A stretch of DNA of 64,000 bases from positions 73,661-137,660 of the forward strand of contig JBHJGN010000001.1 in assembly GCA_050331735.1 (NCBI GenBank). The letters run 5' to 3'. The DNA is from Cyanophyceae cyanobacterium (lineage in GTDB: Bacteria > Cyanobacteriota > Cyanobacteriia > Cyanobacteriales > JBHJGN01). The notes under the pieces were generated by a model. It saw nothing but the letters and a program-made list of their open reading frames with translations, did no database searches and had not been told where the DNA came from. Position numbers and translations under genes: made by a program. This document shows positions 38,632 to 51,132 of this stretch, piece by piece. The first letter of the stretch is position 1; every line of letters begins with the position of its first letter.

Positions 38632-39318
38632 ATGCAGGAAACTAAGATGGTTGCTAATCAATCTAGGACTCCCGTTATCCCACCGCTGGAGAATGGCGAT
38701 CGCCTCACTCGTCCTGAATTTGAACGGCGTTATGCGGCAATGACCCACCTTAAAAAGGCAGAATTAATTGAAGGAGTTGTCTACGTGCCAGCAGCATTAA
38801 GGTTTGGCAACCATGCAGAACCTCATGGTCAGCTCATTACCTGGTTAGGAGTTTACCAAGCCTTTACTCCTAGAGTCAGAGTTGGCGATAATCCTACTGT
38901 TCGTCTGGATTTAGATAACGATCCTCAGCCCGATGCCGTACTGCTCATCGATGGCGGACAAGCTAGCATTAGTGAGGACGATTACATTGAAGGTGCGCCC
39001 GAATTAGTCGTGGAGGTTGCTGCCAGTAGTGCTGCCTACGATCTGCATGACAAAAAACGAGCCTATAGACGCAATGGGGTGCAGGAATATCTTGTCTGGC
39101 GAGTCTACGAACAGGAACTAGATTGGTTTCGCCTGGAAGCAGGAGAGTTTGTGAGACTACAGCCAGATGCCCAAGGAGTTGTTCGTTCTAGAGTCTTTCC
39201 GGGTTTATGGTTAGCCACAGCCTCATTATTATCCGGAGAAATGGACCAGGTATTAGCAATGTTGCAGCAGGGACTAAATACGCCAGAACATCAAGATTTT
39301 GGGCAACGTTCTGATTAA
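38632..39318 (+). CDS. Uma2 family protein
   Basis: LENGDRLTRPEFERRY, PQPDA, APELVVEVAASS, GVQEYLVW. Confidence 0.93.
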   Translation: MQETKMVANQSRTPVIPPLENGDRLTRPEFERRYAAMTHLKKAELIEGVVYVPAALRFGNHAEPHGQLITWLGVYQAFTPRVRVGDNPTVRLDLDNDPQPDAVLLIDGGQASISEDDYIEGAPELVVEVAASSAAYDLHDKKRAYRRNGVQEYLVWRVYEQELDWFRLEAGEFVRLQPDAQGVVRSRVFPGLWLATASLLSGEMDQVLAMLQQGLNTPEHQDFGQRSD

Positions 39319-39439
39319 ACCGGATCGCAACTGCGAAAAAGTAGCATGCGGTATAAGTTAAAGTGATCGCTTTATTGTATTAAGTAAAGAGACAACTGCT
39401 CCCATTTCTCAACGGACATGCTGCACAAATAGAGAGAAC

Positions 39440-39515
39440 TGTAACCTTTACCCCTTCCCCTTTCCCCTTTACCCCTGACACCGCATCTGTAGCTCTACTT
39501 TCCAGAAATGGAATG
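39440..39515. repeat. Heptamer array plus 39-bp repeat shared with 32261-32299
   Basis: CCCCTTT-type units followed by GACACCGCATCTGTAGCTCTACTTTCCAGAAATGGAATG. Confidence 0.6.
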
Positions 39516-39516
39516 T

Positions 39517-40077
39517 CTATACCTGTAGCTCAAATCCAGGTAATACCTCTTCTCCAGAAACAATAGCTGGCAGTTGTCTCACTGCTACCGTTTCTGGTCG
39601 GTAGATTTCTACTGTGGCATCTTGCAGATTGATCAGCCAGCCTAAACGCAGTCCGTTAGTAATATATTCCTGCATTTTCTCTTGCAGGGAAACCAGGCGA
39701 TCGCTTTGTGACCGCAATTCAATGACAAAATCGGGAACCAGGGGAGGAAATTTTTTCCGCTGTTCTAGGGTTAAAGCTTCCCATCGATTCAATTTGACCC
39801 AAGCCGCGTCAGGCGATCGCTTAGCACCATTAGGTAAGATAAAAATCGTGGAAGAGCTAAACACTTTTCCTAATTTAGCTTGACGATTCCAAATACTTAA
39901 ATCTGTAATCAGATCTGCTTCTTGACTACCGCTTTCTCCTCCGACTGGTGGCACGATAATTAATTCTCCTGCTGCACTCATCTCCAGGCTGAGATCGCGA
40001 TTAGCCATACATAACTGATAAAATTGCTCGTCGGTTAAATGAGCAATTGGTTCTAGATTGAGCACAACCGTATTCAT
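39517..40077 (-). CDS. Uma2 family protein
   Basis: LTDEQFYQLC, RSPDAAW, PDFVIELRS, KMQEY. Confidence 0.93.
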   Translation of the reverse strand: MNTVVLNLEPIAHLTDEQFYQLCMANRDLSLEMSAAGELIIVPPVGGESGSQEADLITDLSIWNRQAKLGKVFSSSTIFILPNGAKRSPDAAWVKLNRWEALTLEQRKKFPPLVPDFVIELRSQSDRLVSLQEKMQEYITNGLRLGWLINLQDATVEIYRPETVAVRQLPAIVSGEEVLPGFELQV

Positions 40078-40155
40078 AAAAATTGCCCTCGTGCTTTGCT
40101 CATAATTATAAAATTGAGGCAAGACCCGTGAAACTCCTTCAAACAGGAATGACTC

Positions 40156-40764
40156 ATGGTACAGACCCCATTCAAACCCATCACGCTAGAAGAGTTTCTC
40201 CAACTGCCAGAAACTGAGCCTGCTAGCGAATATATTGCTGGGCAAATCATCCAAAAGCCGATGCCCCAGGGAAAGCACAGCACTATTCAAACTGAGTTTT
40301 CTACGACCGTAAATGTCAGTCTTAAACCTCGACAGGTTGCAAGAGCGTTTTCAGAGCTACGCTGTACGTTTGGTGAACGCTCAATCGTTCCAGATGTATC
40401 TGTGTTTACCTGGCAGAGAATTCCACGGGACAAAAATGGGGAGGTTTCTAATACCTTTCTCTTGTCTCCTGACTGGACAATTGAAATCCTGTCGCCCGAC
40501 GGGCGACACAAGCCCCCGAATCGAATTCGGGGGTCGCGCCCTTATCAGAGCCAAACAAAAGTAACCAAGAACACTTTGCACTGTCTTAATCATGGTACTC
40601 AAATGGGTTGGCTAATCGATCCTCATGAGCAAACGGTTTTTGTTTATCGTCCCAAACAGCAGACGGAAGTATTTGATGAACCAAAACAGCTACTTCCATT
40701 TCCCTCCTTTGCTCAGGAGCTAAATTTGAGTGTAGGGGGTGTGTTTGGTTGGTTATTTGAGTAG
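40156..40764 (+). CDS. Uma2 family protein carrying a 15-aa in-frame insertion
   Basis: LEEFLQLPETEPASEY, IVPDVSV, PDWTIEILSPD[GRHKPPNRIRGSRPY]QSQTKV. Confidence 0.9.
   Translation: MVQTPFKPITLEEFLQLPETEPASEYIAGQIIQKPMPQGKHSTIQTEFSTTVNVSLKPRQVARAFSELRCTFGERSIVPDVSVFTWQRIPRDKNGEVSNTFLLSPDWTIEILSPDGRHKPPNRIRGSRPYQSQTKVTKNTLHCLNHGTQMGWLIDPHEQTVFVYRPKQQTEVFDEPKQLLPFPSFAQELNLSVGGVFGWLFE
40491..40545. repeat. Palindromic REP/IS605-end-like insertion inside Uma2
   Basis: GTCGCCC-GAC-GGGCGAC and CCCCCGAA-TCGAA-TTCGGGGG hairpins. Confidence 0.7.
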
Positions 40765-40853
40765 TGCCGTTTAGACAGTTGTACATTATCGCTCTTGCAA
40801 TGCAGCGCCAGCCTACAAGCTAAAATTATTGACAAGCGTACCTTGAGAATAAA

Positions 40854-41432
40854 ATGACTACAACCAGTCGGCAGTTCACCTTAGCGGAATATCTAACCTA
40901 TAGTGACAGCACAGAGGGACATTACGAGTTGGTTAATGGAGAACTCATAGAAATGCCGCCTGAGTGGGACTTTAACAACCAAATTGCCTCCTATCTATTT
41001 GCAGAATTGTTGAAGGTTGTTTCAAGTCGTCTCATTCGCTGCAAGGGAATCGAAATCGTTGTGGGGGGAGTGCGAGCAACGACGAGAGTGCCAGACTTAA
41101 TGGTATTGAGTGAAGAATTACGACTAGCATTACGACAATCACGGCGGGGAACAATTACGTTGGATATGTTGCCCCCGGTACTAGTGGTGGAGGTAGTCTT
41201 GCCGGGAAAAGAAAATGAAGATCGGGACTATCGCTACAAGCGTTCAGAATATGCAGCACGAGGAATTGCTGAATATTGGATTGTCGATCCAGAACGCGGT
41301 CAGGTAGTAGTGTTGACGCTGGTGGATGGGTTGTATGAGGAGGCCATTTATCAAGGAAATGAACACTTGGTTTCCAAGTCTTTTCCAACTTTAAAGCTAA
41401 CCTCAGAGCAAGTTCTTCGAGGAGGAGAATGA
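40854..41432 (+). CDS. Uma2 family protein
   Basis: YELVNGELIEMPP, RVPDLMV, DYRYKRSEYAARGIAEYWIVDP. Confidence 0.93.
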   Translation: MTTTSRQFTLAEYLTYSDSTEGHYELVNGELIEMPPEWDFNNQIASYLFAELLKVVSSRLIRCKGIEIVVGGVRATTRVPDLMVLSEELRLALRQSRRGTITLDMLPPVLVVEVVLPGKENEDRDYRYKRSEYAARGIAEYWIVDPERGQVVVLTLVDGLYEEAIYQGNEHLVSKSFPTLKLTSEQVLRGGE

Positions 41433-41454: not shown

Positions 41455-41595
41455 CTGAAGAGTCCTCGCGCCACTACACAGAACTACACAGTACTCGAAA
41501 ACCGAAATCGTTGTAGCGGTTGTTCGGACTGCCGCTGTAGCGAAACGCGGAACGGCAGTATTTTGGAGCTTCGTACCACGCACCACCGCGCAACG
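41455..41595 (-). repeat. DGR variable region B with IMH-like tail
   Basis: Aligns codon for codon with VR A and VR C; tail GGCGCGAGGACTCTTCAGCCCT. Confidence 0.75.
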
Positions 41596-42346
41596 GACTA
41601 TTAGCGCTTTCATCATCAGATGACCAAGGTTTATTGCCGTTCTTCTTTAGTTCCTCTGGTTTTTCTTCATAGCTATCATGCCAGTGATCTAAACACCACT
41701 CCCAAACATTCCCGTGCATGTCGTATAGACCAAATCTATTCGCTACTTTGAAATAGCCCGCTTCGGTTGTTTCTTCTCTATCGATTCCTCGCGGTCCTCG
41801 ACCGTAGTTTCCTAAATAAGTCTCGCTGTCTGTTTTAAGGTCTGTACCTCTGTAGTTTGCTAGATCGGTTGTAATTGTTTCTCCAAAGTGAAATGGCGTT
41901 GTCGTTCCCGCACGGCAGGCATATTCCCATTCGGCTTCGGTCGGCAATCGATATTCTCTTTCTGTGTGGCGAGAGAGGCGATCGCAAAACTCGACCGCTT
42001 GATACCAACTAACCTGTTCTACAGGGCGGTTGTCTCCCTTAAATTCTGACGGATCTGGCTCCAGCTTTCGCTTAACTTGAGGGAAAGAAGCTACAGTTCG
42101 CCACTGGGCCTGAGTAACAGGATGCATTCCTAAACAAAAATCGCTCAGGCTAACTTCATGCTGTGGCTCTTCAGAAGATTCATGTCCAATTTCGGTTGCA
42201 GGAGAACTCATCTGAAAGCTTCCTCCAGGGATCTCGACCATTTTCAGCAGAATCCCGTTGCCTAAATCTTCAGCGTAGTAACGTCCAGAGCGATTCTGAT
42301 AGCGAAGGTTGACGCGATATTTTACTTCACCTTGGGAGACAGTCAT
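41474..42346 (-). CDS. Stand-alone FGE-sulfatase/C-type lectin-fold protein, putative DGR target (copy B)
   Basis: [43 protein letters not shown]...GFRV. Confidence 0.9.
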
Positions 42347-42476
42347 AGTTAGCTTTCTGACCTCTGATTATTCGTTCTCCGAGGATGAATTTGTGGTCTC
42401 TGGGGAGACGGTTGAGGATGGGAACGTACCACTGAATGAGATCGTAGGTTTTCTGAATAATGGGTAGCTCTTCCAT
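42327..42476 (-). pseudogene. avd: Truncated DGR accessory variability determinant
   Basis: [39 protein letters not shown] matches the cyanobacterial Avd N-terminus; stops after 49 aa. Confidence 0.85.
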
Positions 42477-42493
42477 GCAGAATTTGAAAAATA

Positions 42494-42520
42494 AGCGATC
42501 GTGCTGCACACGAGATCGTT
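42494..42520 (-). other. Candidate DGR target-recognition DNA hairpin
   Basis: Minus strand AACGATCT-CGTGT-GCA-GCACG-ATCGCT, ~50 nt after the VR A stop. Confidence 0.5.
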
Positions 42521-42569
42521 AAGGAAAAATGGTAAAGGGTAGAGGGCAAAAGGTCAAGAGAGCAAAGGG

Positions 42570-42700
42570 CTAAAGAGTCCTCGCGCCAAAACACACAACA
42601 CGAAAACCGACAACGTAGAAGCGGGCGTCCGGATCGTTGTTGCGGCGAATCGCAGAACGGCAGAGCTCTGGAAGGTTGTACCACGAACCACCGCGCAACG
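42570..42700 (-). repeat. DGR variable region A
   Basis: TTGCGCGGTGGTTCGTGG...GGTTTTCGTGTTGTGTGT..GGCGCGAGGACTCTTTAG; NNY codon variation relative to B and C. Confidence 0.8.
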
Positions 42701-45260
42701 TCCTTAAAGCGCTTTCATCGTCAGTTAACCAAGGTTTATTGCCATTTTGCTTGAGTCCCTCCGGTTTTTCTTGATAGCTATTGTGCCAATGGTCTAAACA
42801 CCATTCCCACACATTTCCGTGCATGTCATATAAGCCAAAAGCGTTAGCCGGATATTCTCCGACTGAACTTGTTTCGTTTTCCTTGCTTTCAGAATAGTTC
42901 ACTAGCTCTGGCGTAACTGTGTCCCCGAAATAATAGGATGTTGTTGTCCCCGCACGGCAAGCATATTCCCACTCGGCTTCAGTGGGCAAGCGATATTCTC
43001 TGTTGGTATGGCGAGAGAGGCGATCGCAAAACTCAACCGCGTCGTACCAGCTCACGTTCTCGACTGGGCGGTTGTCGCTCTTAAAATCTGATGGATCTGT
43101 CTCCAGCGCTCGATTGACTTCGGGTAAAGAGGCAACGACTTGCCACTGCGCCTGAGTAATTGGATATTTACTGATGAAGAAATCAGAAACCGTTACCTCA
43201 TGTTGCGGTTCTTCATCGCGATAGTGACCCGCTTCATCTTTGGGAGATCCCATCAAAAAGCTTTCTCCCAAAACCGCCACCATCTCTAGCTGAATCTCAT
43301 CGCTAATCCGCTCTATCCGCTGCCAGCCGAAGCCAGAAGACTTTGTAATTAGCCATTCTTGTTCGCGTCCAAACGAAAACCACGACCTCGGCTTTGGCTC
43401 AATCTTGGCTGTTTCAAACTCGAACCGTTGCAGAGCTTCTAGCTCAACTTCTTCAACCACAAACTCATGAGGCAACCATTGCGGCCATTCCTCTGGGATA
43501 AGTTGCGCTGTCTCGAACTCCAGAATTTTTAGCGTCGGGAATCCGGGGAACTGGGTTTCTTCCCACGAACCCATCCGAAATTCTCGCGCGAGTTCTCTGT
43601 ACTCGCCTCCAAGACGTTCAAGAATACTTGCCGTTACGCTTGCAAACGACTTTAAACTCCCGTCTTCCGACTCGTTTTGCTCAGGGGACAATAAAACCGA
43701 CTTAAACTGCTGCAACGAGGCATAGCCTAACCGCTGTGCTATATATAACGACACGGCATTGATAATTTCAATGGCATCCACCGGGGGCAGCATCTTTAAT
43801 AGAGCTTCCCGTACCCCACGAACAAAATCGTATTGCACCAACTCTGGATCGATATCGCCAGCTTGGTCGGGTAACCGATGAAGCAGTCCGCTCAAAAAAA
43901 CTTCTGCCACTGGCAAAGGCGACATTTTTGACATCATTGAGGCCCGGATTAAGCGCATGACTGGCAGAGTAATGACCGGAGCGGCGGCCAGCAGAGTGAT
44001 TAACTGCCGTGCCTGTGGCGATGACAGCATCCGAAACTGCTGAATGCGATCGCGGGATAACTTGGCTAGCTCTTCTCCCAGCCACTGCTCGCGTTCAGCC
44101 TCGGTTAACTCTCCCGGCGGACGTTCCCGAAAGCGCTTGTTTACCTCGTCCTCAGACGACGGTGCTTGTGGGACACTCCCTCCCTGCTGGGGCAATAAAA
44201 ATCCCGCCGTCACCTCTTGACCATCACCGGAGAGCACTTTGCTCCAGGCGGCCACGTCTTCGGTGGCTGAAGTAAACACCGGAACGGGGATGCCGCGAAC
44301 CTCCTCTTCCTCTACAAAAAGGTCGAGTCCGATCGCTTCAGCTTCCAGTTGAGAGTTGACAGCACCGGAGAGGGAATTACGCAGAGCAACATAAGTACCG
44401 CGCCCCAGGGCCGTTCGCTCCCACATCCATTCCGGCAGCACCTGCCAGATCGCCGTTGGCATTGCGCCTGCCCACAGCTTCAAAACCGCTAACATCCTGT
44501 CATCCCACCAGTAATCAGCGACGCAATCGCTTAGAATAATCACGATGCGCCGACCGTTAGGAGAAACCAGTTCTCGGGCCGTATGCGGGGGGCGATCTGG
44601 ATGCGATCGCAATACAATTGCCCCAGCCTCGGTTTCGAGTTCCCAGCGTCGAAGGTCGCGAAAGGCTCCGTAATGCTTTAAGAGTTGTTGGAGATCGTCG
44701 GCTAAGCGCTTCCACAAATTCATCGAGGAGCTGCGATCGACGATGAGGGCGATCTCAAACCACGGTTCGAGGTTTGGTTGAAGCACTGGCGACCAAACCC
44801 TAGTTTCCACGATGCGATCGACCGTTTCCGCCTCATCAATCTGCTCTCCTAACCCCGTTGGAACTTGCTTGAGAAGCGGTCGCAGCGCCCGAATTAAATC
44901 CATTGGGTTGTCCAGCAGCGGCGGATCGGCAACCCACAGAGGAAGCGCTTTTTGAGGAAGGGGCTTAGCCGTCGGACGTGGAGGAGGTGGAATTATGGGA
45001 ATCTGTGGATCTGGTGGCTCATTATCTTTTCCATTGACTTTGCTATCGCGAGGTGGAGCAGGTGGAGGTGGAGGTGGTGGAGGGCCTGGATCAGGTAGAG
45101 GTGAAGGGTCTGGATCAGGTAGAGAAGTTTCTTCCGGCTGTTTTTCCTCCTGTTTGTCTCTTGGCTGAATGCGCGTTGTCAACCACAGGACTTCTGCAAT
45201 ATTAGTTGCATCGAGCTGCTCGTCTTTGGCTAAGGCAGCAATCAGCCGTTCGACATTCAT
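42570..45260 (-). CDS. vWA component of ternary conflict system (SAV_2336-like N-terminus, Pro-rich linker, vWA) fused to C-terminal FGE-sulfatase/CLec domain
   Basis: IAEVLWL, poly-Pro linker, MIDAS-like IVDRSSSM, IILSDCV, FGE motifs [15 protein letters not shown] and GNVWEWC. Confidence 0.88.
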   Translation of the reverse strand: MNVERLIAALAKDEQLDATNIAEVLWLTTRIQPRDKQEEKQPEETSLPDPDPSPLPDPGPPPPPPPPAPPRDSKVNGKDNEPPDPQIPIIPPPPRPTAKPLPQKALPLWVADPPLLDNPMDLIRALRPLLKQVPTGLGEQIDEAETVDRIVETRVWSPVLQPNLEPWFEIALIVDRSSSMNLWKRLADDLQQLLKHYGAFRDLRRWELETEAGAIVLRSHPDRPPHTARELVSPNGRRIVIILSDCVADYWWDDRMLAVLKLWAGAMPTAIWQVLPEWMWERTALGRGTYVALRNSLSGAVNSQLEAEAIGLDLFVEEEEVRGIPVPVFTSATEDVAAWSKVLSGDGQEVTAGFLLPQQGGSVPQAPSSEDEVNKRFRERPPGELTEAEREQWLGEELAKLSRDRIQQFRMLSSPQARQLITLLAAAPVITLPVMRLIRASMMSKMSPLPVAEVFLSGLLHRLPDQAGDIDPELVQYDFVRGVREALLKMLPPVDAIEIINAVSLYIAQRLGYASLQQFKSVLLSPEQNESEDGSLKSFASVTASILERLGGEYRELAREFRMGSWEETQFPGFPTLKILEFETAQLIPEEWPQWLPHEFVVEEVELEALQRFEFETAKIEPKPRSWFSFGREQEWLITKSSGFGWQRIERISDEIQLEMVAVLGESFLMGSPKDEAGHYRDEEPQHEVTVSDFFISKYPITQAQWQVVASLPEVNRALETDPSDFKSDNRPVENVSWYDAVEFCDRLSRHTNREYRLPTEAEWEYACRAGTTTSYYFGDTVTPELVNYSESKENETSSVGEYPANAFGLYDMHGNVWEWCLDHWHNSYQEKPEGLKQNGNKPWLTDDESALRTLRGGSWYNLPELCRSAIRRNNDPDARFYVVGFRVVCFGARTL

Positions 45261-46420
45261 TAGTCGGCCTCACTTAAGCGCTTAAACAGAAGCTGTCTGA
45301 GCTTCTCCATCTCCATTTCGCTAGGACCAGGATCGCGAGTAATCAGGTAAACGGCATTGAGCAACTGGTCAGTGGCGCGATCGGCTTTATTGCCTCCTTC
45401 GAGAAACTTTTTAATGAGTGGTTCGAGCTGCGGTTTCAGCGTTTTCCAGTTATCTTCGCCAAAACGGGACTCGATAATCGGATAGAGCGATTCGAGGGTT
45501 GGATCGGGCATTCTGACTCGCAGACAGCGCCGCCGAAACGCCGGAGGAAAGTCGCGTTCGCCATTACTGGTCATCACCACGAAGGGGAACTCGCAGCACT
45601 CGATGCGTCCTTCTGTAATGGTCGCGCTTAAATCTTTATCTTCGGTTAAAACAGTAACCTGCCTCTCAATTCTTTTGCGTCGTACCAGTTCAGGAATCTC
45701 AAACTGACCTTCCTCAAACAGATTGAGCAGATCGTTCGGAAGATTGAGATCGCTTTTATCGATTTCGTCAATGAGAAGAACTCGCGGTCGCCGGGAGGAA
45801 AGGAAAGCGGTTCCGACTGGTCCGAGTTGGATATAGTCCCCCAAGCTGCGTTCCTCTCGACTCGGTTTCTCTTGACTCTCTAATTGGACAATTGCCTCGC
45901 TGTCGGTTTGGTCGAGCTGACTGCCTCGCTGTCGAGCCATCAGTTCTAAAACTTGGGAGGTCGTTGTCTCGCTGCGGGTTTGATCGAGCTGAGCATCTTG
46001 CAGCCGCGCGATCGCATCATAGCGATAAAGGGCATCTTTAAGGGTCGCTCGCGCCGTTACGGGCCAGACTAAAACTGGACCGAGTTGAAGTTCGTAGGCG
46101 ACTGCATAGGCTAAAGACGTTTTTCCCGAACCGGGAACTCCCGTGATCAGCAAGGGACGGCGTAGATGCAAAGCTGCATTAACAGCATCAACAATTTCTG
46201 AATCACCATTTTTATCTTTCTGAATGCGAAAACTCTTTCCCCTCTCAATAGCACGGTTTTCTTCCTTCGCTCTTTCATGCAGCTTGTCCCAGCGTTTGTT
46301 GTCTTTCTTCTCATCGACTTGTTCGCGGGGAAGAAACTCTCGCCAGGGAGGGCGATCGGGAATTTCTACGAGTGGATTGGGGGTGTCGCCGCAGTTGCCG
46401 TGAAAGTGTTTCCAAGTCAT
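45260..46420 (-). CDS. MoxR-type AAA+ ATPase of ternary system
   Basis: AVNAALHLRRPLLITGVPGSGKTS, LLIDEIDKSD..LPNDLL, TSNGERDFPPAFRRRC; TAATG overlap with the vWA gene. Confidence 0.92.
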   Translation of the reverse strand: MTWKHFHGNCGDTPNPLVEIPDRPPWREFLPREQVDEKKDNKRWDKLHERAKEENRAIERGKSFRIQKDKNGDSEIVDAVNAALHLRRPLLITGVPGSGKTSLAYAVAYELQLGPVLVWPVTARATLKDALYRYDAIARLQDAQLDQTRSETTTSQVLELMARQRGSQLDQTDSEAIVQLESQEKPSREERSLGDYIQLGPVGTAFLSSRRPRVLLIDEIDKSDLNLPNDLLNLFEEGQFEIPELVRRKRIERQVTVLTEDKDLSATITEGRIECCEFPFVVMTSNGERDFPPAFRRRCLRVRMPDPTLESLYPIIESRFGEDNWKTLKPQLEPLIKKFLEGGNKADRATDQLLNAVYLITRDPGPSEMEMEKLRQLLFKRLSEAD

Positions 46421-46441
46421 AGGAGCTATAGAGGTAAATAA

Positions 46442-47914
46442 TCAAGGAGCAACGCGATCCGGTGAGTAGAGGGGACGTTCGTTAGTAGGAATCGTTGGCA
46501 AGCGATCGGGGTTGTCGCAAAGAATTCCTAGAGTCTGAATAGGATTAGCTGATGTTGCTAGTCTTTTTTCCTGAATTGACTGAGCCAGTTGTGCAACTTC
46601 TCTGAGGTTGTCTGCGATGAGAAGAGAATCGAACGCCTCACAAATCTCGTCTCGATCGAAGTCCGCACAGTGCGTCCACAAAACAATCGGCATCTGGGAG
46701 AGGATTAATTGCTTCAAGGCTTCCTTGCGAGCAACAGAATCATCCGGTAAACCCGAAATTACTTTTGCTCCTACCTTTCCAGAAATCAACTGCCCTGCAA
46801 AGGTATCTTGGCTACTAGAAAAATCAACTTCAATAAACTCCTGGCAGACTGAATTAGCTGTCAGGCACTTTTGCAGACGTTGCCAACCTTCTCTTACTTT
46901 CAGAAGCAGAAGTGGATGAGTAGCTCGTTCAAGCGAACGAACCAGTAATCTATAGCGATCGCCTAGCTTAGAGATTTCTTGCAACTCATCTAAAGCTTCC
47001 CATTCAAAGACTTGTTCTTCTAGAAGATCCCTGGGGAGAAAAATTTCCAGAACAGCCTGATGGGAGATTTCTTTTTCGAGCAATATCGATGCAGCTTGGT
47101 CTAGCCACGAATACAAAGGATTTGCCAATAGCTTGTCTACGTCCACCAGCTTACCGTTTGGGAGTTCGCAGGAAAATCCTCTCATTCCGTCAGAATCGCT
47201 ATCGAGGGGGTGTGGTTGTCCTGCCAAGTGCAGCTCGGCAAATAACTGTACTGACTTGGCTTTACGCACAAGGGCAACTAAGACATAACCGTGGAGGGAA
47301 GTTAGCTTTGGGGGAACGGTGATGTTATGCTTCCTAACAAGATTGTCTCGCCAACTTCTCAGCTCATCAAAATTTCTTTGAGTTTGCTTGGTGATAATTT
47401 CGATGGCACTATCTATAAAGGCAACGGTCAGTTCAGGGCTGTCGTACTTACTAAAAATTTGGCGAAAACTCTTCAAGTCATTGAGGGATGGATGATCTCG
47501 GAAAACCTCCCTTAGCGATCGCTGGTAATGAGAGAGAAATGCAGCTTTGCACGCGACTTCTAGCGCGGCGCGATCACCTGGTTGAAATTGATTTAATACC
47601 CAATCCCACTCCTGCTGCGAAATTTTTTGTGTTGGCGCAGCGACTATGGAGCCATCCCTCAGCTCGGCTATTTTAGGGTCGTCAGGATGACTGACAGAGA
47701 CCTTCAAGAATAGTTCGTCAAGGCGATTTTCTCGTTTTGCCCATTTGATCAGATCGAATGCTTTATCTCCTAAATCCCCTGATTCAGGAGCAATGGTATT
47801 TAGCTCCTCCACATTCATCAGATCGCTTAATCTCTCCAACTTTTTTGATGTAGGGTAGCAATTAATTATTGCCTGACGAAATTTTTCTCTTCTTTCCCCA
47901 TTCCACTTCCTCAT
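46442..47914 (-). CDS. EAD1-VMAP (vWA-MoxR-associated protein)
   Basis: N-terminal EAD1-like (FRQAIINCYP...AFDLIKWA...RLDEL); VMAP-C-like LEIFLPRDLL..W, LLVRSLER, PIVLW, ILCDNPDRLP. Confidence 0.8.
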   Translation of the reverse strand: MRKWNGERREKFRQAIINCYPTSKKLERLSDLMNVEELNTIAPESGDLGDKAFDLIKWAKRENRLDELFLKVSVSHPDDPKIAELRDGSIVAAPTQKISQQEWDWVLNQFQPGDRAALEVACKAAFLSHYQRSLREVFRDHPSLNDLKSFRQIFSKYDSPELTVAFIDSAIEIITKQTQRNFDELRSWRDNLVRKHNITVPPKLTSLHGYVLVALVRKAKSVQLFAELHLAGQPHPLDSDSDGMRGFSCELPNGKLVDVDKLLANPLYSWLDQAASILLEKEISHQAVLEIFLPRDLLEEQVFEWEALDELQEISKLGDRYRLLVRSLERATHPLLLLKVREGWQRLQKCLTANSVCQEFIEVDFSSSQDTFAGQLISGKVGAKVISGLPDDSVARKEALKQLILSQMPIVLWTHCADFDRDEICEAFDSLLIADNLREVAQLAQSIQEKRLATSANPIQTLGILCDNPDRLPTIPTNERPLYSPDRVAP

Positions 47915-47921
47915 AAGCTAG

Positions 47922-48335
47922 CTATCGTTCTAATGGTGGTAACAATGGAATTGCACTGGCGTAAATGAGCAGTAAAAATGACCCGTAAAACGGCTGATAA
48001 AAATCTAGCGTCTCAAATGGTCCGCCGATGGCAAATACCCAAACGGCAAACGACGCACAAGATAGCCAAATTTGCTGCCAAGCCGTTGGTTTACCCGATT
48101 CCGCCGTCTGTTTTCGCGTCCAGAAATAGGAAAATACGAGTCCAGCTCCAAACAGCATCCAGAGGAACAAAGGTTTTGGGATATCGTTTCCCTGGCTTTG
48201 AATTAAGCCGTTGCCTGCCAGCCACAGCCCGACTACATCGGCAGGAATATACTTAAGGAGACGGTCGAAATAACCATCAATACTTTTATTTTCTCCTCCT
48301 GACTGGTACTGCTGCCAGACGATACGACGGCTCAT
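47922..48335 (-). CDS. Uncharacterised 4-TM membrane protein in the conflict operon
   Basis: 137 aa from ATG 48335 after RBS GAGGAG; YFDRLLKYIPADVV plus four hydrophobic segments; 7-nt gaps to both neighbours. Confidence 0.8.
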   Translation of the reverse strand: MSRRIVWQQYQSGGENKSIDGYFDRLLKYIPADVVGLWLAGNGLIQSQGNDIPKPLFLWMLFGAGLVFSYFWTRKQTAESGKPTAWQQIWLSCASFAVWVFAIGGPFETLDFYQPFYGSFLLLIYASAIPLLPPLER

Positions 48336-48342
48336 CTTCTCC

Positions 48343-49401
48343 TCACTGCAAAAATGGTGCGATTTCTTGGTAGATCGATTGAAATAAAATGCCCTCGCGG
48401 ATGCTCCCAAAACCCCGCGACATCGATAGGTGATGCAGCGCTATCAACTGCCAGCGCTCGTTAAAGCAGGGCGAACCGCTCGATCCTTTCTTTGTCCGGT
48501 TCACGTACCAGATGCGATCGCGTTCTAGAGCGAAACCGACGACTCCGCTATCGCTGAGGGAAACCTGCATCAGCTCTCCTTCGGGATGCTGAAGAACATA
48601 TAAACCTTTTTTAGGTTCTGGTAAGGTAGCAGTAGAAACATAAACGAGAGGTTTAATGTGGTTTGCTTCAGCGATCGCTGCTTCAGCCCGCAATAAGACG
48701 TAATCGAGACTTGATATTGGGCTAAAGGCAACGACGGGCTTTTCCACTGCTACCGCATAGACCTCCGGGCGCACGGGAGTTTCGCGTTCTTCACTAACGT
48801 AACCAAACTCAAAACAGAGCGATCGCGCTAGGTGGTTGAGGCGTTTGGAATCTACTGTTTCCTCTGTCAGAACGTGATAATTGGTCAGAATTAAATCGGC
48901 AGCAACCAGGACTCCGGTTCCGGTGCGATCGCTATCGGTAAAAACTACTTTGCAAATTGAATCAGCACACTGCAAACCTCGCTTAAGCTGACCAACATCT
49001 GTCTCAAAAGAAAGCGCTCGCGCTGGGAAGAAGGCTTCGAGTTCAGTATCGGTCGTCGGACCTTGCCAGTCGAATGGTCGGCTAATGACTTCTGTGATCC
49101 CTTCTCCGTTGAGAACGAGATGCTCTTGCAATAAGTCCTGAACTCGCTGATAAAACTGACGAACATCTGGATTGTTAGACTTTTGCTGATAGAGAGAGAC
49201 AATCAGCTCAACTAACTTGTTTTCCCTCCTCGCCCAATCGACAAGATCGAACGCAGCATCGGTCGTATCGCTCTCACTGGCAATTTCATTGAGATCGACA
49301 TCCAAACTATCAGCAAAAATTTGGATCTTTTTGCGGGAGGCAAAAGCTTTCGTAATCGCATTGCGGAGCTGATTGCGATCGCTACCCGATAACTTCAACA
49401 T
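48343..49401 (-). CDS. EAD1-trypsin-like serine protease
   Basis: EAD1-like LRNAITKAF...AFDLVDWA; triad GTGVLV..LTNYHV (H), LDYVLL (D), GSSGSP (S). Confidence 0.88.
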   Translation of the reverse strand: MLKLSGSDRNQLRNAITKAFASRKKIQIFADSLDVDLNEIASESDTTDAAFDLVDWARRENKLVELIVSLYQQKSNNPDVRQFYQRVQDLLQEHLVLNGEGITEVISRPFDWQGPTTDTELEAFFPARALSFETDVGQLKRGLQCADSICKVVFTDSDRTGTGVLVAADLILTNYHVLTEETVDSKRLNHLARSLCFEFGYVSEERETPVRPEVYAVAVEKPVVAFSPISSLDYVLLRAEAAIAEANHIKPLVYVSTATLPEPKKGLYVLQHPEGELMQVSLSDSGVVGFALERDRIWYVNRTKKGSSGSPCFNERWQLIALHHLSMSRGFGSIREGILFQSIYQEIAPFLQ

Positions 49402-49664
49402 CAGCGACCTCCAAAACAGGATTTTAGGATGTTGAACCGCCGCTCGTTCTCTGCGACCCGTTTACTCAAAGCATCTGCTGGCTGCAACTGTTATGGAAAA
49501 GAATATCATTCATGGGTGAGAAGTCAAATAAGAATGCCTTTTAGTGCAATTAATTGCGGTCAAAGGAAAATTTAGATCTGCTCGGTCATGTTTATGTCTG
49601 CATCCGAAAACCCCTCAAAACGGGGTAGCTTTAAAGCATTACTGACCTTGAATGATTCACCACA

Positions 49665-50483
49665 ATGACAAAACTAATTATCCGACGGCAGCAAGGAAAA
49701 GCCCGGTACTACACTGAGGATCTAGGGGGTGGAGTCGGACTAGACATGATTCTTATCCCTAGCGGTAGTTTCTTGATGGGAACGGAAGATCGAGAAATCG
49801 ACAGACTTTGTGAAACTTACAGCAGTGAGCATTTTAGAACTGAAGGACCACAACATCGAGTAACCCTCCCCACTTTCTTTTTTATAGGACGTTATCCCAT
49901 TACTCAAGCACAGTGGCGAGCCGTCGCTTCTTTACCTTTAATCAATCGGAAGCTAGAGCCAGATCCATCAATATTTGAGGGAGACAATCGTCCAGTCGAG
50001 AACGTGAGCTGGTACGAAGCGGTAGAGTTTTGCGATCGCCTCTCTCGCCACACCGGAAGGGAATATCGGTTGCCCACCGAAGCTGAGTGGGAATATGTTT
50101 GCCGTGCAGGGACAACAACACCCTATTATTTCGGGGACACAATCACGTCAGAGTTGGCAAACTATGAAAGAAATCGAGAAGAGACAAGTCCAGTCGAAGA
50201 ATACCCAGCCAACGCTTTTGGCATTTCTGATATGCACGGGAATGTGTGGGAGTGGTGTCTAGACCACTGGCACGATAGCTATAAAGACACACTAGAGGAA
50301 TTAAAGCAAAATGGCAATAAACGGCTGACTGGTAAGAAAAGCGCTAATAGAACGTTGCGCGGCGGTTCATGGTCCTACACTCCAGAGGCCTGCCGTTCTG
50401 CGTTTCGCAACTACGACTATCCGGACCTCCGCAACGACATTATCGGTTTTCGAGTTGTGTGTAGTGGCGCGAGGACTCTTTAG
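49665..50483 (+). CDS. Stand-alone FGE-sulfatase/CLec protein, putative DGR target (copy C)
   Basis: [30 protein letters not shown]...GFRVVCSGARTL. Confidence 0.9.
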   Translation: MTKLIIRRQQGKARYYTEDLGGGVGLDMILIPSGSFLMGTEDREIDRLCETYSSEHFRTEGPQHRVTLPTFFFIGRYPITQAQWRAVASLPLINRKLEPDPSIFEGDNRPVENVSWYEAVEFCDRLSRHTGREYRLPTEAEWEYVCRAGTTTPYYFGDTITSELANYERNREETSPVEEYPANAFGISDMHGNVWEWCLDHWHDSYKDTLEELKQNGNKRLTGKKSANRTLRGGSWSYTPEACRSAFRNYDYPDLRNDIIGFRVVCSGARTL

Positions 50484-50520
50484 CCCTTTCCCCTCTTGTT
50501 CTTTTGCCCTTTTCCCTTCT
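50355..50520 (+). repeat. DGR variable region C with IMH-like pyrimidine tail
   Basis: Aligns with VR A and VR B; GGCGCGAGGACTCTTTAGCCCTTT identical to A. Confidence 0.8.
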
Positions 50521-50622
50521 TTGGTTCAGTCCCAGATTTAACAAAGCTGGCAATTCTAACTTTCAGCATTCCGGCAATTCACGCAGTCTAAAAATTAAGC
50601 TCACCGTTTATGATCGTCAATT

Positions 50623-51132
50623 ATGCAGGGGCAATTCACCGTGAAGACTCGTTCAGCCACCCAAGTACTCTTCGAGACCGATTATTACCAATGGACGCAA
50701 GGAACTGTTAAGCATCTCCAGAACCGGGATGTTGAAAACCTAGATTGGGAACATTTAATCGAGGAAGTCGAGCTATTGGGCATTAGCGCTAAGAATACCG
50801 TTAAAGGTTCTCTAGAAGTGCTACTCGTGCATCTTCTGTATTACCAATACTGGTATAACCGCCGGGAATACTTAACCGAAGGATGGGCGGATGAAATCGA
50901 AGAATTTCGCTCCCAATTTGAAAAGAGCCTTGCATCTCGGAGCCTCTATAATTACATGCTAACGATTCTCGACCAAACCTACGCCAAAGCAAAGCGGAGA
51001 GCAGTGAGAAGGTTTGTCAGGGCTAAGCTCATACCTCCCCAGTTTCCCGACCAATGCCCCTACAGCATCGCGCAACTATTCGATGAAAACTACTTTCCAG
51101 AGTTTAAGTCAGAGCTAGAATCAAGCGACTGA
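50623..51132 (+). CDS. DUF29 family protein
   Basis: FETDYYQW, LDWEHLIEEVE, LLVHLL, FPDQCPYS. Confidence 0.9.
   Translation: MQGQFTVKTRSATQVLFETDYYQWTQGTVKHLQNRDVENLDWEHLIEEVELLGISAKNTVKGSLEVLLVHLLYYQYWYNRREYLTEGWADEIEEFRSQFEKSLASRSLYNYMLTILDQTYAKAKRRAVRRFVRAKLIPPQFPDQCPYSIAQLFDENYFPEFKSELESSD

Follow-up and report, generated by a model that had tools for sequence, protein, structure and literature searches.

Introduction

VMAP ternary systems are abundant in multicellular bacteria and are proposed to be adaptive-immunity-like sensors. In this work, we analyzed such a locus in a 64,000-nucleotide stretch of cyanobacterial DNA (hereafter, the window; positions 73661–137660 of contig C1 of genome G000, a 5.57-Mb assembly of 99 contigs that is 99.98% complete). 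The locus is centered on an operon encoding an EAD1-trypsin protease, a protein with four predicted transmembrane helices (4TM protein), an EAD1-VMAP protein, a MoxR-type ATPase, and a vWA protein with a C-terminal lectin-fold (CLec) domain. We conclude that the system is of a known kind but has degenerated and become frozen, and that the membrane partner of its effector arm appears to be unnamed.

VMAP ternary systems and their effector-associated domains (EADs) were defined by Kaur, Burroughs, Iyer and Aravind (eLife, 2020, PMC7159879). According to the text of that paper, about 80% of cyanobacterial VMAP systems are associated with diversity-generating retroelements (DGRs) and have the vWA component fused to FGS, and trypsin-like peptidases have Trypco1 or Trypco2 neighbors. 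Dore et al. (PNAS, 2024, PMC10907252) proposed the vWA-CLec target as an antigen sensor, described degenerate DGR loci, and reported that most DGRs of multicellular cyanobacteria, which belong to reverse transcriptase (RT) clade 5E, diversify VMAP sensors. Since these two papers describe it, the class of DGR-linked VMAP-type vWA-MoxR ternary systems is already published. On the effector side, a preprint (bioRxiv 2025.11.14.688446, PMC12642450) identifies Pepco (that is, Trypco1/2) and EACC1 experimentally as cleavage-activated pore formers. The protease partners named in the available portion of this preprint are Pepco, EACC1, MBL, alpha/beta-hydrolase, CATASP and MPE, and an integral-membrane partner is not among them. 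We found no name for the 4TM family or for an integral-membrane protease partner in the literature searched, which did not include the supplements and figures of Kaur et al.

As far as these sources describe them, the DGR-associated cyanobacterial VMAP systems (PMC7159879, PMC10907252) share with our locus a VMAP protein, a MoxR-type ATPase, and a vWA protein whose C-terminal FGS/CLec domain bears a variable repeat (VR). They also share EAD adaptors that tie the system to a trypsin-like peptidase, and an extra short target consisting of CLec only. Unlike them, our locus has a truncated avd gene and has lost the RT and the template repeat (TR), so that the genome can no longer diversify its targets with genes of its own; it is a former member of the 80% mentioned above. 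In this respect it resembles the degenerate DGR loci of Thiohalocapsa PB-PSB1 (PMC10907252), where a VMAP/MoxR-linked target locus also lacks key DGR machinery. However, PB-PSB1 keeps a complete DGR of the same class elsewhere, which is able to act in trans, and its lost parts are described as replaced by transposons or by arrays resembling miniature inverted-repeat transposable elements. In the genome studied here, by contrast, the deletion is clean and no DGR is left in the assembly.

Results

From the listing of open reading frames (ORFs) and their translations, the five genes of the operon lie in one direction on the minus strand. The EAD1-trypsin protease (48343..49401, 352 aa) is followed by the 4TM protein (47922..48335, 137 aa from its ATG), the EAD1-VMAP scaffold protein (46442..47914, 490 aa), the MoxR-like AAA+ ATPase (45260..46420, 386 aa), and the vWA-CLec protein, the putative sensor (42570..45260, 896 aa). 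According to the ORF coordinates, the genes are separated by 7, 7 and 21 nt, and the last two overlap by 1 nt in the sequence TAATG. The core genes for VMAP, ATPase and vWA are thus co-directional and tightly linked (the 21-nt gap and the 1-nt overlap), and the same gene order is found in the relatives G015, G044, G078 and G010.

Using Pfam, we found in the VMAP protein an EAD1 domain at residues 3–87 (E 3.4e-10) and VMAP-C (PF20028) at residues 254–469 (E 5e-21, 76 bits against a cut-off of 27). The protease also carries EAD1 at residues 3–87 (E 1.6e-11), together with Trypsin_2 at residues 161–322 (E 2.5e-16). The genome contains exactly two EAD1 domains, these two, and they are 38% identical to each other. 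The protease has 522 homologues at E ≤ 1e-10, and its catalytic triad, His176/Asp233/Ser308, is invariant in 35/35 aligned homologues. The ATPase matches AAA_5 (E 9.8e-9, 35.8 bits against a cut-off of 22). Its Walker A (GVPGSGKT) and Walker B (LLIDEID) motifs are invariant in all 10 aligned sequences. The best PDB profile matches of the ATPase are Midasin AAA domains (E 5.6e-9), which cover the P-loop stretch only, and none of the MoxR-specific models scored above its own cut-off. Judging by synteny and this P-loop match, the ATPase probably belongs to the MoxR clade. Residues ~140–195 (window 45830–46000) form a low-complexity insertion within the AAA domain, and this insertion varies across the ten relatives aligned.

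Over its first 512 residues, the vWA-CLec protein matches NCBIfam NF041121 with 386 bits against a cut-off of 200, and Pfam made no VWA call in the 896-aa protein. Single-sequence searches of the PDB with the N-terminal part of the vWA protein and with the ATPase gave nothing useful. The protein consists of an N-terminal helical part, a disordered Pro-rich linker, the vWA/MIDAS domain (~105–347), a helical arm (~366–552), and the FGE-sulfatase/CLec domain (659–889). The AlphaFold (AF2) model has a predicted local distance difference test score (pLDDT) of 81.6, which falls below 50 at residues 32–55 and 72–113. In a 37-sequence alignment, the MIDAS motif D175-x-S177-x-S179 with D245 is conserved. 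Comparison of model residues ~105–347 by VIA-align gave the MIDAS domain of Rea1/MDN1 (Z 8.8) and the vWA domain of CMG2 (Z 8.1, root-mean-square deviation 3.1 over 129 residues), then integrin I domains (Z ~7) and NorD (Z 6.7). MIDAS/vWA domains made up most of the top 50 rows, and Foldseek matched the model to NorD with a probability of 0.99. For the helical arm, residues 366–552 (window 43602–44165), the helical/winged-helix arm of CED-4 was matched at Z 8.5, and further STAND proteins (MalT, NRC2) at Z 6.7–6.9, which may reflect just a common helical arrangement.

With its vWA fold nearest to the Rea1/MDN1 MIDAS and NorD, and its ATPase profile nearest to the Midasin AAA domains, the pair resembles the AAA-MIDAS couples NorQ-NorD and Midasin (Rea1). 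On the model, this likeness fits a chaperone couple of the MoxR-vWA type. It is remote (Z 6.7–8.8, and the P-loop stretch only for the ATPase). NorQ-NorD and Midasin mature metalloenzymes or ribosomes and, unlike our locus, have no link to proteases, EADs or CLec sensors.

We are highly confident in identifying this cyanobacterial locus as a ternary conflict system of the VMAP-type vWA-MoxR class. An earlier note on this DNA, made from the sequence alone, had assigned it to the computationally described vWA-MoxR-VMAP class with EAD1 adaptors and DGR-type CLecs. This assignment agrees with the Pfam and NCBIfam matches, the vWA fold with its MIDAS, and the published class. The gene order, the gaps and the TAATG overlap were given there correctly, and the domains that it had named (EAD1, VMAP-C, Trypsin_2 and FGE-sulfatase) were all matched by Pfam, with AAA_5 for the ATPase. 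Its second CLec gene past the avd fragment and its third, divergent CLec gene at the other end both have FGE-sulfatase matches. In PADLOC-DB 2.0, no component fits a system model; only weak fragments of P-loop and protease were matched (best E 1.6e-6 over 57 residues).

In relatives with an intact DGR (G011, G006 and G015), avd, RT and TR lie between the long and the short CLec gene. The order in G011 and G006 is Trypco1, trypsin-VMAP, MoxR, vWA-CLec, Avd, RT, TR, CLec. In G015 it is EAD1-trypsin, 4TM, EAD1-VMAP, MoxR, vWA-CLec, Avd, RT, TR, CLec, that is, the operon of the window with the cassette intact, and G044 has the G015 order up to the end of its contig. G015 and G044 are thereby examples of relatives in which this gene order goes with a working DGR. 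Compared with the G015 layout, the window has lost roughly 1.5 kb. In the window, the stop codon of vWA-CLec and the start codon of the short CLec2 gene are separated by 223 nt, and one frame there (42360..42476, minus strand) encodes the first 39 residues of Avd. The avd fragment reported in the earlier note is therefore real: by tblastn, its 39 codons are 82% identical to residues 1–39 of the G006 Avd and 76% identical to that of G011, and they match positions 3–34 of 107 of Pfam bAvd (E 2.1e-5); owing to the truncation, this match stays under the gathering score. Of about 112–116 avd codons, only 1–39 are kept. In the DNA alignment, avd homology ends 14 nt before the CLec2 ATG, and we take this point as the deletion joint; it is clean and free of insertion-sequence debris. 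A 111-aa ORF at 42349–42684 was also considered as the avd remnant and rejected, being in a different frame.

We then searched the whole genome for the missing parts. It has no DGR reverse transcriptase: the sole RVT_1 match, on contig C26, is fused to Cas1 and was rejected as a DGR RT. This RT-Cas1 fusion (locus L012 2–1657, minus strand) runs off the contig end and is presumably a CRISPR adaptation gene. A tblastn search of the genome with RT and Avd sequences from the DGRs of two relatives recovered only the fusion and the 39-codon avd piece. No template repeat was found for any of the nine CLec genes of the genome, since all 39 of the 39 blastn matches to their 3′ ends fall inside CLec genes. 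Sequencing runs were also inspected. A 618-nt contig of X1, the one run that contains the stretch, spans the deletion joint without differences, although X1 is probably the source sample and not an independent one. Contigs of X1 also span both minus-strand VRs unchanged; contigs drop rare variants, so rare VR or DGR variants would go unseen. Runs X2 and X3 contained only paralogous or foreign CLec pieces. We are confident that the DGR has been lost (avd from codon 40 on, RT and TR) and that the sensors are frozen. Because the genome holds no replacement DGR, the three CLec specificities would be fixed and drifting by ordinary mutation.

The three CLec domains of the locus match FGE-sulfatase in Pfam with E 1.6e-55 (vWA protein), 4.2e-49 (CLec2) and 1.6e-52 (CLec3). 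CLec2 (41474..42346, minus strand, 290 aa) is a short, CLec-only former DGR target and a 78–79% DNA paralogue of the vWA-CLec C-terminus. CLec3 (49665..50483, plus strand, 272 aa) is a short divergent gene at the other end of the operon. The fossil VR of vWA-CLec (42601..42695, minus strand) was delimited by TR/VR alignment with relatives and a codon-position test, and those of CLec2 (about 41496–41590, minus strand) and CLec3 (about 50358–50452, plus strand) by alignment. Within the VRs, 15/10/3 of 24 codons vary at positions 1/2/3, against 76/58/138 of 213 in the rest of the domain. The contrast at the third position between the VR and the rest of the domain is significant (Fisher p = 8e-7). 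The TRs of G011, G006 and G015, relatives from other families of the order, served as proxies for the lost template. Where the G011 and G006 TRs both have an adenine, 17/23 columns vary, against 7/64 non-adenine columns (p = 4e-8); where the G015 TR has one, 21/25 columns vary, against 10/71 others (p = 4e-10). These alignments indicate that the VRs were once written from a shared adenine-rich template and have drifted since. The adenine-specific pattern in the CLec fold is thus present as a historical trace, non-adenine differences included.

The earlier note had called these sensors hypermutable. The present genome gives no support for this: avd is cut after codon 39, RT and TR are absent from both the locus and the assembly, and the VRs disagree at non-adenine sites. 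One could suppose that the CLec genes are still hypermutable, diversified in trans by an RT and TR that the assembly has missed or that belong to a co-resident variant of the strain. Repeats often break assemblies, and this one is in 99 contigs; Dore et al. (PMC10907252) describe degenerate loci diversified in trans and strain variants with intact beside degraded RT/TR. Moreover, two of the three VRs have kept an intact 3′ flank similar to that of active targets. However, no DGR-type RT, second avd or TR was found in 5.57 Mb at 99.98% completeness. Besides, the three VRs differ pairwise at 3–6 of the 64 proxy non-adenine sites, whereas in the intact relatives all TR-VR mismatches are at adenines (13/28, 12/28, 18/26, 13/26, 18/25 and 12/25) and none of the 67–71 other sites differs in any of the six VRs of G011, G006 and G015. 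Since the window VRs differ from one another at non-adenine sites, one TR cannot serve all three. In CLec2, in addition, a 10-nt tandem duplication (41486–41495) lies directly after the VR and shifts the frame of the last residues. Continued hypermutation therefore seems very improbable to us, and we retain the reading of a lost DGR.

Approximately 50 nt past the stop codon of each VR (TAGCCCTTT...CTTTTGCCC) are alike in the three targets (42514–42572, 41455–41480 and 50481–50540) and in the targets of G006 and G015. This conserved stretch may be the target-recognition flank of this DGR lineage. A short GC-rich hairpin 3′ of the vWA-CLec stop codon (42499..42513, minus strand), which resembles a terminator, sits inside the 3′ flank shared with the DGR targets of relatives, and its function can only be presumed. 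Scans for promoters and terminators found about as many sites as expected by chance (7 versus 9.0 and 12 versus 11.6, respectively); they have no bearing on co-transcription. In the flanks (window 38632–41432 and 50623–51132), four genes of the Uma2 family (putative restriction endonuclease-like) lie directly beside the locus, and a DUF29 gene lies beyond CLec3.

The genome carries a second VMAP system, on contig C37 (locus L011 8025–16438). It consists of Trypco1, a fused trypsin-VMAP(M1,C), MoxR and vWA-CLec, with two short CLecs upstream. Its VRs show the signature less strongly, with 17/16/12 of 24 codons variable at positions 1/2/3. By tblastn of the genome with the relatives' Avds and RTs, this system has neither an avd trace nor an RT. 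The sequence pattern suggests that it lost its DGR earlier, in an older freeze. A Uma2 gene flanks this system as well (L011 16435–17061).

The 4TM protein has no Pfam family even at E 10, and its 181 homologues are all annotated as “hypothetical”. Its AF2 model contains four long hydrophobic helices and an amphipathic helix (pLDDT 82.3), as the name 4TM given in the earlier note implied. The model has no match among PDB folds at E ≤ 0.001, and a search of the ESM Atlas returned unnamed “hypothetical” clusters only. The N-terminal motif M-x-R-R-[IV] (window 48321–48335) is almost invariant, with S1 and S8 protease partners alike (loci L060–L139). It is not Tat-like because no hydrophobic stretch follows.

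To describe the linkage of the 4TM gene to proteases, we used two sets of genomes. In 151 genomes of the order, orthologues of the 4TM protein (E ≤ 1e-19) and of the EAD-trypsin (E ≤ 1e-30) occur in the same nine genomes and are adjacent in 9/9. There are two more weak 4TM matches without a protease; one is interrupted by a stop codon, and the other, with 30% identity, forms part of a larger protein. In species-representative genomes, 227 tblastn-confirmed stretches encode a 4TM relative, and 80 loci were kept for linkage counts. These loci span Cyanobacteria, Alphaproteobacteria, Acidobacteriota, Bacteroidota, Chloroflexota, Gemmatimonadota, Planctomycetota and Deinococcota. It turned out that a trypsin gene lies directly upstream of the 4TM gene on the same strand in 59 of the 80 loci; in 58 of them Trypsin_2 is among the matches listed, and in L084 the call comes from a full-length match to a trypsin hidden Markov model (HMM). 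A trypsin gene lies directly downstream in L088 and L100, and a partial one at the locus end in L108, which gives a trypsin-like gene beside 4TM in 61–62 of the 80 loci. Another six loci (L109, L114, L122, L123, L124 and L132) have a Peptidase_S8 gene beside it. The 59 upstream proteases carry EAD1 in 38 cases and EAD8 in nine, with no adaptor listed in 12. A third gene was called in 51 of these loci. It encodes VMAP in 30 and is unrelated or unassigned in 10; the others are EAD1-CHASE2, EAD1-GUN4, EAD1-iSTAND, EAD1 with an unknown domain, and kinase-CLec. The 80 4TM loci have no Trypco1-like gene by an HMM built from three sequences, whose reach is limited, and three Trypco1 loci have no 4TM gene.

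Two side observations concern the neighbors of this pair. On a 171-kb plasmid of G006 (contig C2; loci L052/L082), EAD1-trypsin/4TM is followed by EAD1-GUN4 and lies beside a gene for a TraG/TrwB-type coupling protein, which hints that the cassette moves horizontally. In G005 and G041 (L049 3909–5207 and L053 4711–5820), a gene for a calcineurin-like metallophosphoesterase lies directly upstream of the pair; PMC12642450 counts MPE-like enzymes among the partners of such proteases.

In the Pepco (Trypco1/2)- and EACC1-protease modules, as described in PMC12642450, a small non-enzymatic protein is encoded beside a sensor-coupled serine protease. The 4TM-protease pair is similar, and it likewise recurs with many sensors and more than one protease class; in the C37 system of the same genome, Trypco1 stands beside (upstream of) its protease. 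Unlike Pepco, Trypco and EACC1, the 4TM partner is modeled as an integral four-helix membrane protein and has no similarity to them. We tentatively propose that the 4TM protein is a protease-gated membrane effector that stands where Trypco/Pepco stands in other systems. It is possible, with a similar degree of doubt, that it is the founding member of an unnamed family of effectors integral to the membrane, each gated by the serine protease encoded beside it, with S1 and S8 protease classes exchangeable. Such a module would plug into VMAP, iSTAND, nSTAND, CHASE2 and kinase-CLec sensors via EAD1 or EAD8, and in our locus the 4TM protein would be the executioner, in the role that the pore former Trypco/Pepco has in the paralogous system.

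The same linkage, which gives a functional tie and not its direction, would also suit a 4TM protein with a role other than death effector: it might serve the serine protease as a membrane anchor, act as its inhibitor or immunity partner, or be a sensor by which the protease is tethered or regulated. The cytoplasm-facing MxRR[IV] motif, its most conserved part, could be a docking or pseudo-substrate element, and an integral four-helix membrane protein is unlike the soluble pro-toxins Pepco and EACC1. Against this, the 4TM protein holds the protease-neighbor slot that Trypco1 (upstream) holds elsewhere and was never seen together with Trypco1 in the loci compared. The exchange of protease classes, too, is the pattern of cleavage-activated effectors such as MBL, as reported in PMC12642450. 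We therefore consider a non-effector role somewhat unlikely. Complex prediction for EAD1-trypsin with 4TM (paired alignments A2 and A3, 35 rows each) gave scores of 0.30 and 0.04 against a mark of 0.32, which speaks neither for nor against binding.

Discussion

Taken as a whole, we consider it likely that the locus is a ternary conflict system whose DGR has been deleted; the protease-4TM pair may be its effector arm. Following the model of Dore et al. (PMC10907252), the cytoplasmic CLec tip of the vWA protein would bind an invader-derived ligand. The MoxR ATPase would then remodel the vWA-VMAP complex and set an ATP-dependent threshold, as proposed by Kaur et al. (PMC7159879). Next, the EAD1 of VMAP would recruit the trypsin-like protease, the only other EAD1 protein of the genome. 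Up to this point the flow, from sensor through MoxR to recruitment of the protease by EAD1, is the one put forward in the earlier note, and it would follow the two published models. The activated protease may act on the 4TM protein encoded 7 nt downstream, and the resulting membrane damage may lead to cell death or growth arrest. The action of the protease on 4TM and the membrane damage are the least certain of these steps, and we advance them with reserve.

The assignment of the sensor is disputed: in the available text of Kaur et al. (PMC7159879) VMAP is the sensor and FGS an effector, whereas Dore et al. (PMC10907252) place sensing in vWA-CLec. In the wiring of Kaur et al., VMAP would sense the invader, the released CLec/FGS domains would be binding effectors (decoys or neutralizers), and the short CLecs would be further effectors. 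This is the published prediction for the class (PMC7159879, summarized in PMC10907252), and the long disordered Pro-rich linker of the vWA protein and the linker before the CLec domain could be cut. However, hypervariability at a ligand-binding tip is what one would rather expect of a sensor, as argued by Dore et al. (PMC10907252). In addition, the protease keeps its 4TM neighbor even where no vWA-CLec is nearby, for example beside EAD1-GUN4, EAD1-CHASE2 and EAD1-iSTAND. We regard the wiring of Kaur et al. as unlikely for our locus and prefer vWA-CLec as the sensor, with the protease and 4TM protein as the candidate effector arm.

Several points, including this dispute, weigh against our explanation. 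Sensing, MoxR remodeling, EAD1-EAD1 binding and 4TM cleavage are all inferred, and we found no experiments on any VMAP system in the literature searched. With an assembly split into 99 contigs, an RT or TR that escaped assembly remains conceivable. The templates used as proxies belong to other families of the order. All comparison genomes are same-order relatives at 38–57% protein identity, none being available from the same genus or family, and the ancestral state of the locus is therefore inferred from these relatives. Furthermore, 12 of the 80 4TM loci have no protease neighbor (L060, L094, L096, L106, L110, L112, L113, which is at the locus edge, L118, L119, L125, L134 and L135); several of them are GC-rich, with uncertain gene calls.

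The earlier note had also suggested that the layout of this locus may be undescribed. A short CLec beside a long one is standard, however, and degenerate DGR loci are published. The 4TM partner is not special to this operon but belongs to a widespread protease-linked family, for which no name was found in the papers searched.

The locus is a natural “frozen” version of the system, with three fixed sensor variants and no retroelement, which makes reconstitution simpler than with a system that still diversifies. The genome also indicates that one lineage can lose every DGR and yet retain two VMAP systems and nine CLec genes. The pairing of the protease with the 4TM protein provides a concrete and cheap hypothesis for the killing step of the EAD-trypsin branch. 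If it is true, the 4TM protein would become a further candidate among the few bacterial death effectors that a protease activates.

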